Source of the DNA: Octopus vulgaris | Taxonomy: Eukaryota | NCBI GenBank assembly: GCA_951406725.2 | Contig: OX597823.1 | Location: 9,548,001 to 9,612,000, forward strand | Reading direction: 5' to 3' | DNA length: 64,000 bases | Shown here: in pieces, positions 15,536 to 59,937 of the stretch | How positions within the stretch are numbered: the first letter of the stretch is position 1 | How the letters are laid out: the number at the start of each line of letters is the position of its first letter | Notes under the pieces: model-generated | Told to the model about the DNA's origin: nothing | The model's database searches: none | What the model saw: the letters and a program-made list of their open reading frames with translations, nothing else | Made by a program: the position numbers and the translations under genes

Positions 15536-15853
15536 CTGTTGTGTCTGGGGTGAGTCATTCTCTTTTAGCGCTTTTATGATTTAACACACCCACCGGTAAA
15601 ATTTCAACTTATTTCTTTTATATTTTTCTAAAATTTTCGTTGCGTCTTGCAACCTTTTCAAAACTATTGAAAAGGTTGCAAGACGCAACGAAAATTTTAG
15701 GAAAATAAAAATAAGAAATAAGTGGAAATTTTACCGGTGTGTGTGTTACATTATCAGGCACAAAAAGAAAATGACTCTACCCAGACACAACAGAATGTGC
15801 TTTAACACTCGAACTCGCATAAAGAATTTTGCAAACCAAATCCCAAAACGAAA
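15536..15853. mobile_element. Foldback element in (TA)n (arms about 15536-15662 and 15667-15793)
   Basis: Imperfect ~127-bp inverted arms; degenerate hammerhead-like motif at the apex. Confidence 0.75.
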
Positions 15854-16477
15854 TATATATATGTGAATGTGTGTATATATATACATATATATATATATAT
15901 ATATATATATATATATATATACAAACAAACGTTTTTATTTCTCTTTCCATTTCAGAATTACAACTATTAGTGGTTTGGAGTTTAGCTGCTCTTTCTAGTG
16001 AATCGGATGTCCTATTATAGCCATCCCTTATATGTTTGAATGTATATTATATAGTCTATTGACTATTTTTCTCTATCTCACATGACCGCTGGTAGCGGAG
16101 AATTTTCCTAGAATTTTTTGCTACCCTAAAATTTATTAATATATATATATATATATATATATATATATATATATATATATATATATATATATGCTTATAT
16201 ATATAAATATATTTATGTGTGTGTATGCATACATACGTATATACATACATGCATCTGTTTCGGAATGCTTCGCGTTATTTCTTCCGGCTCTTTCCGTTCT
16301 AAGTTCAAATTCCGTAAAGGTCGAACTTCGACATTCATCATTTCCGCGTTTGTTAAAATAAGCATCAGTTGAACACTGGCGTCGATGTAATCGACTCCAC
16401 TCCGCCGCGAAAATGGCTGGCATTGTGCCGAAATGTGAAACCATTATTATTATTATTATTATTATTATTATTATTAT

Positions 16478-16855
16478 TCTATGTTTGACTTTTGCTTTAT
16501 GTCTGTACAAGTTGGCTCCAAGTCTCACCCAGAGACCTCAAGAGACAACAGGTTGGAAGTTCTGTGCCATATATTTGGGTTTTTTGTTTTTTTTTGTACT
16601 AGTGAATGTCTAATACATAAAAATAAAAAATAAATGAATAAATTTTAAAAAAAAATAAAAATAAATGAATAAACAAAAAAGTTTATTTTAAACCTTGGGA
16701 TTACATAGAGAGTATTTTGCGTAGGATATGAGCAGTTCCCATGAGCACTATCTTTTGAATTTCTGCCATTTTGGGGTTTCCTGGTATCTGAGTTAGGTAG
16801 CAATCAGTCCCATTCGCTATCATTCCCAGGGCACCTATGACAACAGGTATTGTTT
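16478..16855 (-). mobile_element. R4/Dong-type LINE 3' end (second subfamily) in (TAA)n
   Basis: Minus strand reads TIPVVIGALGMIANGTDCYLTQIPGNPKMAEIQKIVLMGTAHILRKILSM*; (TTA)n on both sides. Confidence 0.85.
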
Positions 16856-17899
16856 ATTATTATTATTATTATTATTATTATTATTATTATTATTATTATT
16901 ATTATTATTATTATTATTATTATTATCATTATTATTATTTACTTCAGAAATCAAATAACAAGATATTTATGCATGTTCAACGATAAACAAATTCATCTTT
17001 AAGCCGATATTATTCAACGGAAAGCGGCTTCAGTTAAAATCCTAATTCTAATGAGAGACTACTGTTATTATTGATCCCTATTTTGTACTAAACGGTGTAT
17101 GATTAGAACCACTGGCCAATGTATTTTTTTAAAATTGTTACCCGGCATATATTAAAAATTCTCCGCTTTCTATAAGCAGATGTGCATGACTGTCACCAAA
17201 GTCGATATATTTCTAGTTGAACGGCTGTTAATGGTAAATAGAACAGTGTTTTACTAATTGCGATCCATAATAACGTTGAACCTATGAAAGTGGAAGCAAT
17301 TTTTTCTTTTATTTGTGTTGTAGGCTGTAATGTTTAATAATACGGAGATAAAAATAAAAGTGGTGTTAGTGAGCATGAAATGGTTGAATGAGACGATATT
17401 TCATAAAATTTCTTCGAAATTTGCAACTAGTTTTGGGATAAGGGTCATTCGGTTTATATAAAAGAATGGCAACGATCAGATAGGATGCATACCTGCTGCA
17501 ATAAGTCGAGAGAAGGAAGTTGTTATAAACGACTTTTAGATACACTGTATCATCTCTGTTTAAAATAAGGCATGATGAGGGGAGATATTTGGGGGATGAT
17601 ATCGTCAGCTAAGATTTATTGTATAAAAATAATTAATATTGAATTTAAATACTCATATCTCAGTATTTACATTACGAAAATATTGTTAGCACGTAAAAAG
17701 TTCAGCTTTGAAACGTAGGGGCTGAGAAATAACTACCTGTGTATGATTTAATATACTTTTTATAAAGACGCGGAAGGTGAGGTCTGAGTTTTAACTCCAC
17801 TCCAGTAACGCTGTGTAGGTACATCACATTTAGTGGAAATGAAAACAATATTCAAAATATTCCCTCATTATCAAGTTTAAAATGGCGGATCGATTTAAG

Positions 17900-18980
17900 C
17901 TTGTGCAGTTGATAGTTGTTTTAGCATTTACATTGTTATCCTTGTTTATATTAATCCATTCCGTCATTTTATTGTTGGCTTTTAGTTCAGATGTAAATCA
18001 TAAAGCACATCATAAATTTTGATAATTTGTGGTGATCATCGGTCATATTTCTTTCTAAGATTACACTTTATTTGATGTACGCAATATTCAATGCGTTTCA
18101 TCCTATTTGAAGTATTTAAGCAGATCTCTTTCATCTAATATTTTTTTTCCTTTCAATTTAGTTTATTTTAACATTCTAATATTTCAAGCAGCATATCTCC
18201 TTTGAAATTGGATTAGCTTTACTTTACACTATGCTCACGTTCATATTTACGATGAATATTTCTAATACTTCTGGAATATTATCCAATAGATTGTCATCTA
18301 GTGTTTATAGTTTTACTTCATGCCTTCGCTGGATTGATTCATAAATAGTTTAGTGTTTTCCCATTGCTCTTTGATATATAACCAATTAGATTTCCAAAAT
18401 TATTTTGCAAAATAAATTCAAACAAGTCGCAAAAGAGTGTATCGCGCGGAAAAATTACATTTTAATTCAGCGACTGCTTTCTTAATATTTTCATTTACAT
18501 ATCTGTTCTATTGCAGTGTGTTGCTTATATCGATTTCGATTTGTTCACTAAAGTACTGAATGTTGAAACCATTGTATTAGTAGCAATTATTTTATATTAT
18601 GTTCTATAAGGAAATCAAATACCGTCTAATACACTAGCGAAACAATTGTTTGCTATATAAACGCATTTCTTTGACAAATTAGGTACGAGTAATAAAACAG
18701 CGTCGCAACACTGCTTTGTAAGCGAATTAAGATTTTGGATAAAACGAAATCTAGCTCGATGCCAAGGTGCCAAGTGATCTAATTTATGATGTTATATTTT
18801 TCAGATGATAGTCATTGTTTGTCTATAGTTTAACTTCATAACTTCCCTGTATTAATTTATAAACAGTTTACAGTTTACCCGTTCATCTTGTTTGTACTCC
18901 TGGTATCGTTTCAGAAATGGTGTTAGGAATTAAATTTAAGTAAGTTCCAAAGTGATTCAGTGTTCTGTAAAAATTGAATT
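17900..18980 (-). pseudogene. Possible very old R4/Dong RT remnant
   Basis: Only faint traces resembling the GIFQGDSLSPLLF and NHLFMDD regions near 18330-18470. Confidence 0.3.
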
Positions 18981-57459: not shown

Positions 57460-57756
57460 TAAAAGGCAAAGGAATAATCGATAAACCTTCGGAATGTCAG
57501 TCAGAACCATTACAAATGAATTCCATGTTTCAGAATGCGCCATTACAAGAGCTGTGCATGAAGACGTCCGCTACAATTCGTATGTGATGCCGTACGGTCA
57601 GTTTATGTCGGATCTCTACACAACCATCTGTCGCTCCTTCCGTTTACATTTTGGCTTGATGGGACTTATCATCGGAGAATAACCCAAGCATTCTAACCCC
57701 TCGTTGTTTCGTTGTTTTAAAGTGTTTAGCAAGCACTTTGCACGGCTCGAACAGTT
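57460..57756. pseudogene. Rearranged duplicate of the mariner-like fragment
   Basis: 57460-57613 matches 54681-54835 directly; 57608-57756 matches about 54848-54989 inverted. Confidence 0.85.
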
Positions 57757-57999
57757 TAATCCGGCAATGTCAATAGCACTAAAATAGATGGTGTTTGGGA
57801 ACAAACAAAACAAAGAAATCGCAACTTTCAAGCGCATGTACAAATGTATCGGTAAATGATTTCAGCAAGTAAATTACAACAGATTCCTAAATACGCAACT
57901 ATACAGCAAACAATCCGTTAAGTAATACAGATATGTACATATATATGTATATATATATATATATATATATATATATATATATATATATATATATATATA

Positions 58000-58383
58000 C
58001 TAGCAGTATCGCCCGGCGTTGCTCAGGTTTGTAAGGGAAATAACTATAAAGCATTTTTAGAGAGTTATAGCCAAAAATTAGCAAAAAAATGGAAAAAAAT
58101 TATGGTAAATTTTTTTTGAGATTTAAAAATGGTGGAGTTGCGTCCCCTAGACAATTTGCGGTTTGTGTTTCTCATTCTCGACCCCATGTCGAATTTATCG
58201 ATTTTTTTCAGAACTGGGGGAACTTTTCAAAATTTTCGCTGCGTTAGTTTTGAATTATGACATTGGGCTATGTGTGTGTCAAGTTTCATCAGAATCGGTT
58301 GAAAGCCGTGGTCAGGGTGAGGGTACAAGCAAACAGACACACAGAAACACGCACAGACAAACTGCCGTTTATATATAGAGAGA
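58000..58383 (-). mobile_element. Non-autonomous Helitron
   Basis: Hairpin plus CTAG|T at 58000 with the same 3' end as the 26606 copy; A|TC start near 58383; different 5' body. Confidence 0.85.
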
Positions 58384-59937
58384 TATGTATATATAAATAC
58401 ATGCACACACACACATACACACACACTCACACACACACACACACACATATTGATAGAAATGGCAAGACAACAAACGAATGAAAGAGACGTCGATATGTAA
58501 ATAGAGGAATTTATCTGTAAATGTAATATGTGACAATTATTCAGTAGCCATGATAAAACTCGGAGTTTTATCATGACTACCGGATAGTTGTCACATATTA
58601 TACTTACACACACACACACACACACACACAATATATATATATATATATATATATATATATACATACATACATATATATATATATATATATATATATATAC
58701 ATACACACATACATTTATCCATATATATATATATAAACATTCACATGTGCTTATATGTGTACATTATATATATATATATATATATATATATATATATACA
58801 TACATACATATATATATATATATATATATATATATATATGTATATATATATATATATATATATATATATATACATACATATATATATATATATATATATA
58901 TATATATATTATATATATATATATACACGCACACACACACACACATAGACACACGCACACAAACTTAAGCCCACCCACACGTACGACCACACACAGAAAC
59001 ATAAACGCATATATATGCATAATTAAAAATGGTTGAAGCAATTATATGAAAATGATTTTAAAATCTGATCTGCGCGTGCATCTATCAATATCCGCCCAGA
59101 AATCCATTATGATATCTGCGTAAACAACATTATATCTTGCATTACGTACACGGCTGTGTCAGTAGGGTAAATGTAATTAACTTCACTTCGTGTATCTAAA
59201 TCTTTATTATTAAGTCTTCCTAATAAATTCCACAACGGCCCTCCATATTAAATCCAGTCGGAATCGAAAAGAGAGTGTATTAATTAGAACCTGATATGAA
59301 ATGAAATCCATACATTTTCTCGCTTGTGTAAATGCATACGTTGATATTTGTGTCAATAAATTTATATATATCTTTCAGTTTGTGTATATTGGTGTCTATT
59401 TTGCACGTATGTAAATTCCTGCGCACAGCGTCTCATGCGGAAACACATGCATGTATAGAGAGAAATGAAGGGGCGTAAGATTTGGAGCAGCCTAAACAGA
59501 ACCTTTATTACTGTGCGTTTTGTTTATCTTAAAAGCGAATGTTAAGTTCCAATAGAAAGATTACCGACAATCCGTTAACAAATACAAACTTTCAGCTGCA
59601 ATAAATCAAACATTTGCAAAGATATTTAAACATGATAAATCTAGAAAGTCAGATATCCTAGTACTTAATATTTTCAAATACAGCAAAGCCATCACCTACC
59701 CACCTACACACCACATTCAGTAACTTTACCCTCATTAGTGCGAATTTACAGTAAATTATTCCAAAATGCTAACAGGTGAACTTTAATCTGCCTCAATATA
59801 AAATGATGCTTAGATTCTTACCTCATTTGGATTCGTTATGCTTTACATTCTCTTTTATAAGGCATATGAACATATGGTCATCTATCTATATATATATATA
59901 TATATGTATATGACCATATGTTCACATGCCTTTCAAT

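Follow-up and report, generated by a model that had tools for sequence, protein, structure and literature searches.

Head-to-head foldbacks of Penelope-like families in Octopus vulgaris, with centres that likely record the joining of DNA copies

The window analysed here is a stretch of 64,000 nucleotides (nt) of the Octopus vulgaris genome, positions 9,548,001 to 9,612,000 of the 118-Mb contig OX597823.1 (assembly GCA_951406725.2, 2.8 Gb in 227 contigs). Microsatellites are abundant across it, and an inverted-repeat search combined with self-comparison of the window located eight foldbacks, near 15.6, 22.5, 24.6, 25.4, 36.5, 39.7, 40.35 and 58.56 kb. A first-pass annotation had listed all eight, and inverted repeats are indeed present at every site. 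Each foldback consists of two copies of its own separate repeat family. We relate these families to the Penelope-like elements (PLEs) and argue that the foldback centres likely mark the joining of converging DNA copies at short palindromes, rather than a stall of the reverse transcriptase (RT) at a hammerhead ribozyme.

The foldback near 15.6 kb (15533-15796) is 86% self-complementary. Its left arm (15533..15662, minus strand) covers unit positions u132 to about u4 and has no 3' extension; the right arm (15663..15853, plus strand) carries a 57-nt 3' tail at 15797-15853, and the joint is a 13-nt overlap at 15660-15667. Near 22.5 kb, the inverted segments 22160-22343 and 22843-23024 share 82% identity, the lowest of the eight. 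The arms of this pair reach inward to 22774 and 22806, the left one occupying 22160..22774 (minus), with an internal ATT repeat grown to about 400 nt, and the right one 22806..23030 (plus); the apex lies at 22775-22805. The inverted repeat at 24054-25149 (85% overall, with stretches of 96-100%) contains a longer arm (24100..24667, minus), apparently the 3' end of an autonomous PLE with the end of the RT/endonuclease (EN) frame and the 3' untranslated region and without a tail, and a shorter arm (24668..25116, plus) with a tail at 25081-25116. With a left arm that exceeds the right one by 144 nt, this pair has its joint at about 24662-24668. The centres at 22.5 and 24.6 kb are the two that had been misplaced in the earlier annotation. 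The 25.4-kb foldback (25157-25625, 89%) combines a tail-less arm running from r229 to r1 (25157..25381, minus) with an arm bearing a tail at 25626-25670 (25382..25670, plus); positions 25382-25395 are family sequence, with no spacer.

At 36.5 kb, the inverted arms 36410-36476 and 36609-36678 are 83% identical. The short arm (36397..36476, minus) starts at a GGTCG/CGACC hairpin, and the longer arm (36540..36692, plus) runs into a CTT repeat. The foldback near 39.7 kb (family 39.x) is the best preserved, with 99% identity between 38863-39267 and 39667-40072 and 98% between 39456-39669 and 39859-40072. Its left side is an array of a 593-nt unit (38760..39669, minus), composed of a partial unit at 39456-39669 (t381-593), a full unit at 38863-39455 and a tail at 38760-38862 (t1-103). 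The partner arm (39667..40072, plus; t189-593) has no tail and stands head to head with the array. The 40.35-kb inverted repeat (40293-40400, 90%) comprises a tail-less arm that starts in the helix III palindrome CTCAGAG (40293..40345, minus) and an arm with a tail of about 70 nt that starts in helix II, the CTGATGA box being absent (40346..40470, plus). In the 58.56-kb repeat (58516-58608, 86%), the arm with the tail (about 58445-58515) occupies 58445..58561 on the minus strand and the tail-less arm 58563..58608 on the plus strand, and both begin within a 13-nt palindrome over GAAA and helix III.

The outer ends of the arms are taken as 3' ends on three concordant grounds, namely the course of the reading frame, the hammerhead sense strand and the constancy of outer relative to inner ends; all eight pairs are therefore head to head, as had been proposed. 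In the 24.6-kb family, the RT open reading frame is directed outward, with its stop codon inside the arms. The hammerhead sense strand points outward wherever a hammerhead is present, and in every family sampled the outer ends are constant and the inner ends variable. A DNA transposon with long terminal inverted repeats, considered for the 24.6-kb structure, was dropped since the RT frame runs outward. The additional claim that the arms run into microsatellites stands for both flanks at 15.6, 24.6, 25.4, 39.x, 40.35 and 58.56 kb, the left flank of 39.x being scored as such only from a stretch skipped as repeat, and for one side only at 36.5 kb.

Longer copies of the 24.6-kb family carry a frame that matches RVT_1 (E 1.6e-7; 31.7 bits versus a cut-off of 29.6). 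RVT_1 scored above the cut-off in two of the five frames scanned, and a third frame fell below it. By eye, the same frame has a Cys-rich linker and a GIY..YVG-like stretch at its C-terminus. Among seven longer relatives, which cover 46-90% of the frame, three contain PF00078 together with PF01541 (GIY-YIG family). The pairing of RVT_1 with GIY-YIG is the defining domain pair of PLEs. Judged by these predicted domains, the 24.6-kb family derives from the 3' end of an autonomous PLE. The 39.x family forms head-to-tail arrays of its 593-nt unit with a spacing of 593-595 nt and up to at least five units, each tandem unit containing a type I hammerhead, as in retrozymes. The remaining families are short (about 190-360 nt) and non-coding. 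Partial tandems of the pseudo-long terminal repeat (pseudo-LTR) type are present beside the head-to-head pairs, which together form the architecture of PLEs, and the flanks read show the AT-rich or (TA)n target of these elements.

Hammerheads were sought with Rfam covariance models, with our own type I descriptor and by hand parsing of longer family copies. The Rfam hammerhead models gave no match at gathering score in the window, nor in the foldbacks alone, a tandem dimer or complete copies (E up to 10), and no hammerhead was among the best 150 of 247 matches of the whole window to Rfam at E up to 10. On the foldbacks, Rfam returned only microRNA-like matches that reflect their hairpins. The combination of a long helix II and a tiny helix III probably costs Rfam score; by comparison of the motifs, these models appear to miss such minimal forms, and the reading of absence from Rfam was withdrawn. 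In the 39.x family, a canonical-core type I hammerhead is predicted at 39789..39877 (plus), with CTGAAGA, a 6-bp helix I, a 70-nt helix II, a CGTACG helix III and a cut after GTC, and it has a twin at 39145-39057 (minus). This motif meets the descriptor, which matched none of 40 shuffled windows.

Longer copies of the 40.35- and 58.56-kb families contain complete motifs, with CTGATGA or CTGAAGA, GAAA, a helix I of 5-9 bp and a short, palindromic helix III (CTCAGAG, CTCGGAG). Predicted folds agree in part with our hand parsing. In the autonomous PLE, a hammerhead-like motif at 24907..24932 (plus; twin at 24270-24245, minus) has a U3/A8 core (TTGAAAA), a 7-bp helix I, a 2-bp helix II and a CCGG palindrome. 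This core is kept in at least 30 copies of the element (loci L068-L097). C3 and G8 pair with each other in the active hammerhead, and the U3/A8 motif may be a core that covaried naturally. In the 15.6-kb family there is no more than a degenerate motif (TTGAAAA core, helix I absent) that fails the descriptor in all 30 loci, and the 25.4-kb family has no hammerhead in 30 loci by the descriptor or in a tandem dimer. The minimal, dimer-prone form seen here is the one described for PLEs (PMC4209133; this and the other papers below are cited from the portions available to us). Six canonical-core hammerheads of other families were encountered by chance in about 280 kb of flanks (L011, L013, L031, L034, L061, L075), and the Octopus vulgaris genome appears dense in such motifs.

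Five families (15.6, 25.4, 39.x, 40.35 and 58.56 kb) were sampled genome-wide, with 1.5 kb of flank per locus. For each, the 30 top-scoring loci were taken from a much larger pool of candidates (a first-look genome search of all eight families listed between 300 and 2176 in each); the 39.x loci amount to 20 distinct places. Each arm was mapped onto one natural long copy of its family. Head-to-head pairs were found at 13 of 30 loci for the 15.6-kb family, 22 of 30 for 25.4 kb, 25 of 30 for 40.35 kb, 17 of 30 for 58.56 kb and 7 of 20 places for 39.x. The sum, 84 of 140, includes the window's own five pairs; tail-to-tail neighbours occur at three places among the same 140. Head-to-head pairs of the 22.5- and 36.5-kb families were also found at other loci. 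The junction sequence varies from locus to locus, and the pairs therefore arose in independent events.

This imbalance bears on the idea that the two arms are separate insertions of one family into the same microsatellite at different times. Such insertions would be expected in random orientation, contrary to the 84 head-to-head and three tail-to-tail arrangements; no microsatellite remains between the arms, and pairs occupy 43-83% of sampled loci despite a family density of about one copy per megabase. The idea draws on the targeting of (TA)n by these families, where an insertion leaves repeat on both sides, and on the divergence of the arms, which resemble each other no more than they resemble other, unrelated copies of the family (for example, 86.9% arm to arm, versus medians of 86.9% and 95.3% to the family). 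We regard it as very improbable. The tail-less arm is the more diverged one in four of six pairs, from which nothing is concluded, the loci having been chosen by likeness to one arm.

We give almost no credence to an artefact of assembly or of hairpin reads, given that the same architecture recurs at 84 places on many chromosomes with differing junctions and that six of the eight window pairs have arms diverged by 9-18%, more than any such artefact could produce. The suspicion is natural for the two youngest pairs, whose arms are near-identical (39.x, 99%; 24.6 kb, 96-100%), and PLE structures are known to trouble assemblies (PMC8557442). Logan contigs are about 60 nt long inside the repeats, and none bridges 39667, 24665 or 25388, which makes them no test either way.

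In all six window pairs that could be scored, a tail of 36-103 nt is present on exactly one arm, an outcome with a chance of at most 0.016 at any base rate. The tail of 39.x is the first 95-110 nt of the next unit. Among the sampled loci, 76 of 80 pairs have one tail only. When 20 copies of the 25.4-kb family were sampled without bias, 15 lacked a tail and five had one, and both 3' ends are thus in use. The strict rule that one arm has a tail and the other has none was rejected, and only the six of six in the window counts. At one locus of the 25.4-kb family (L237), the inverted partner is reduced to the 43-nt tail, which directly adjoins the 5' end of a tail-less copy.

The first-pass annotation had placed five of the junctions within or beside hammerheads and proposed that reverse transcription stalls there. 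Three of these placements hold. At 39667 the partner copy begins inside a canonical-core hammerhead, in the 3' strand of its helix II; the junction at 40345 is inside helix II/III, and at 58562 the 13-nt palindrome covers GAAA and helix III. The motif at 15663 is degenerate (TTGAAAA, no helix I) and makes a weak case. At 25388, what was taken for a CGATGA core is family sequence beside the joint, read on the antisense strand, a motif created by the junction itself.

The three valid placements, all in canonical-core hammerheads, are what a stall of the RT at the folded ribozyme would predict, with breakpoints piling up on the motif. In the 593-nt family, 27 5' ends (14 from paired and 13 from single copies) are scattered over the unit, with four in the 102-nt hammerhead, where 4.6 were expected, and no end at the predicted cut site. 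Two of them, t374 and t381, are 6-13 nt 5' of GAAA, where 0.6 would be expected. In the same family (L098-L127), seven of the 27 ends fall at t148-189 beside a G-rich tract with runs of three to four G, versus about 1.9 expected; this cluster may be a structure-dependent stop unrelated to the ribozyme. The 58.56-kb family reaches 200 nt upstream of its hammerhead. Its 46 ends, counted without the reference copy and with two loci with distant partners scored as single, include 15 inside the ribozyme versus 12.5 expected. The 21 nt of the helix II 3' strand, GAAA and helix III do collect 11 of them versus 4.3 expected, and the strongest zone is the 29 nt just 5' of the ribozyme, with 20 versus 5.9.

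The hammerhead as a whole is thus not enriched for 5' ends in the two families tested, and the hot zones 5' of the ribozyme imply that the enzyme read through it. In the 40.35-kb family, 29 of 55 ends are at the 5' edge of helix I and 21 are inside the motif, past which the element barely extends. The 25.4-kb family, with no hammerhead, nevertheless concentrates 15 of 44 ends (2.2 expected) at r87-105, a hot spot that takes in the palindrome TTTGCAAA and the adjoining hairpin. The 15.6-kb family has a common 5' terminus, favoured by the query, at which 19 of 26 ends from pairs and 14 of 17 from single copies fall. Single copies end at the same places as the foldback arms, and hammerhead mutants were without effect on the products formed in vitro in the available part of the green anole study (PMC11167929). 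A stall at the ribozyme as such is, on these counts, quite improbable.

The hot spots of the breakpoints are the usual 5' ends of the short elements, and short palindromes or hairpins, including helix III as well as sites outside any ribozyme. In each family the apex positions repeat those at which copies ordinarily end 5', except that palindromes and hairpins are over-represented. The hammerhead would then be close to the apex because reverse transcription starts 50-200 nt away from it, because the 5' end of these short elements is near, and because it carries palindromes; it would not itself be the cause. We found no paper that maps PLE inversion joints against the hammerhead, in a search that covered main texts and not supplements.

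The junctions themselves fit joining at microhomology or palindromes. At 20 of the 84, an overlap of at least 4 nt fits both arms, versus about 1.7 expected from simulated blunt joins, where such overlaps arise at 1.6-2.1%. Examples are CTAG, TTCTAGAA, ATAT, CGTTAACG and TTTGCAAA. With moderate confidence, we favour an origin of each foldback as two copies of one PLE-type family, laid 5' to 5' in a microsatellite by one insertion event, in which both cut strands primed complementary DNA (cDNA) and the two copies were joined where they met. Acting on AT-rich or (TA)n DNA, the PLE ribonucleoprotein would introduce a nick in each strand, and reverse transcription would begin at one of two internal sites, giving an arm with or without a tail. 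Each cDNA would then reach the 5' end of its short template or halt at a stable hairpin. The two antisense cDNAs could pair with each other at palindromes or hairpin stems and nowhere else, and would either anneal at such a site or join with a few filler bases.

Dual priming, already suggested in the first-pass annotation, fits two observations: both arms derive from one and the same 3' region of a single family, and head-to-head arrangements outnumber tail-to-tail ones. The suggested joining through microhomology or a palindrome fits the excess of overlaps, which includes the helix III palindrome at 58562, and the description of an inverted 5'-truncated copy as a known PLE pattern agrees with the literature (PMC8557442). 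On AT-rich DNA in vitro, purified PLE protein cuts each of the two strands and extends it, starting at two internal sites that set the tail; according to the available sections, insertion is equally good with a dead hammerhead (PMC11167929).

Several points weigh against this account. Filler of 1-30 nt, part of it copied from elsewhere in the unit, is found at 31 of the 84 junctions, and many others have overlaps of 0-1 nt, from which it follows that palindrome annealing explains only a part of the joints. The sampled loci were chosen with queries that favoured the 5' end (15.6-kb family) or the presence of a tail; with tail-bearing queries and 15 of 20 unbiased copies tail-less, the 76 of 80 is mostly base rate. 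The start site was alike on both strands in vitro (PMC11167929). The frame of the 24.6-kb family itself has no Pfam match to a GIY-YIG domain, and the link of the short families to PLEs rests on architecture and, in three of them, a hammerhead, with no coding part. The steps of the mechanism are read from genomic end products. Finally, 24 of the 84 junctions are symmetric, with both ends within 3 nt, which the fold-back of a single strand would also give.

Such self-priming, in which the nascent strand or an antisense template folds at a terminal palindrome and copies itself, has been proposed for rotifer PLEs from palindromes at inverted junctions (Arkhipova et al. 2013, PMC3846280), and many of the symmetric octopus junctions are on perfect palindromes. 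We nevertheless consider it unlikely. The other 60 junctions are asymmetric, and filler separates the arms at 31. A fold-back copy should reach the end of the template and the target flank, whereas the outer ends differ between the arms in six of six window pairs. A variable site in the helix II loop of the 40.35-kb family (L131, L137, L138, L140, L141) also bears on this question. Where the long arm has T, the opposite arm has C in four of five informative pairs, a hint of separate source RNAs for the two arms that argues for two templates, at loci picked by likeness to the T-bearing arm of the window.

Within the favoured account of dual priming and joining, a more tentative idea, which we rate as doubtful, is that the short palindromes of these elements, chiefly the palindromic helix III and loop through which PLE hammerheads can work as dimers, double as annealing sites that zip together two convergent cDNAs derived from the two target strands. 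If true, the palindrome of the ribozyme would shape the outcome of insertion at the DNA level and would explain head-to-head pairs as the default product.

The foldbacks represent the standard, already known architecture of PLE insertions, including short dependants, at an unusually high frequency in this genome. Insertions of EN-containing (EN+) PLEs likewise show an inverted 5'-truncated copy abutting the 5' end, pseudo-LTR tandems, a one-sided short 3' tail, a (TA)n target, palindromes where the inverted copies meet and a hammerhead within the repeated segment (Craig et al. 2021, PMC8557442; Arkhipova et al. 2013, PMC3846280). Head-to-head prevails over tail-to-tail in rotifer PLEs as well (PMC3846280), and a 2014 study reported minimal hammerheads in pairs, one on each strand and separated by 100-700 bp (PMC4209133). 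In contrast to the EN+ elements, most octopus families are short and non-coding, and pairs are in the majority, at the 43-83% of sampled loci given above. The octopus tails are 36-103 nt long, compared with 30-40 in the published portions available to us; two octopus families have no detectable hammerhead, and the autonomous element has the U3/A8 core.

The PLE of the green anole, as far as the accessible text of the in vitro study goes, resembles the octopus families in the cutting and extension of both strands, the AT-rich target, a dispensable hammerhead and two internal start sites whose spacing corresponds to the tail (Frangieh et al. 2024, PMC11167929). In that text joining was not followed, whereas the genomic end products in octopus show microhomology or filler. 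Animal retrozymes of the non-LTR type share with 39.x the tandem units, the type I hammerhead and a helix III that is short and palindromic (Cervera and de la Pena 2020, PMC7229834; Li et al. 2026 preprint, both in part). The ends of the 39.x array differ from these in carrying PLE-type tails and head-to-head partners, and none of 27 5' ends coincides with the predicted cut site.

A further comparison concerns long interspersed elements (LINEs). In the twin priming of LINE-1, reportedly set out by Ostertag and Kazazian in 2001, the second target strand is said to prime a second cDNA, with an inversion resulting from joining by microhomology. The inverted piece in twin priming is a different, more 5' part of one RNA, whereas the two arms of the octopus pairs have the same 3' sequence in eight of eight cases, each from the element's own start site.

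In vitro work on PLEs, in the parts available, stops at the extension of both strands, and for each family the genome supplies natural end products by the hundred. The 84 junctions suggest that the cDNAs are joined by short palindromic microhomology or filler, with the position of the joint following the 5' terminus of the template and its hairpins. They also provide a rule for annotation, since such foldbacks otherwise resemble microRNA precursors or terminal-inverted-repeat transposons. Three foldbacks (15583-15747, 40311-40382 and 58517-58607) match plant or animal microRNA precursors in Rfam with E down to 1e-12, far below the gathering scores, and structures of this kind are a likely source of false microRNA calls.

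The window contains further inverted repeats, at 35196-35417/36035-36256, 2535-2656/3001-3134 and 54849-54989/57608-57756, with spacers of 0.3-2.6 kb. A vault RNA is located at 7624-7713 (plus; 42.7 bits, above the gathering score) and a transfer RNA at 5367-5439 (plus; 69.4 bits); the two mark the window as animal DNA. Three open frames have recognizable content: 25841-26392 (minus) contains a Pif1 2B domain and is a Helitron-like fragment, 60687-61721 (plus) has a weak Myb/SANT-like domain, and 62013-63206 (plus) encodes the AP-endonuclease of a LINE.

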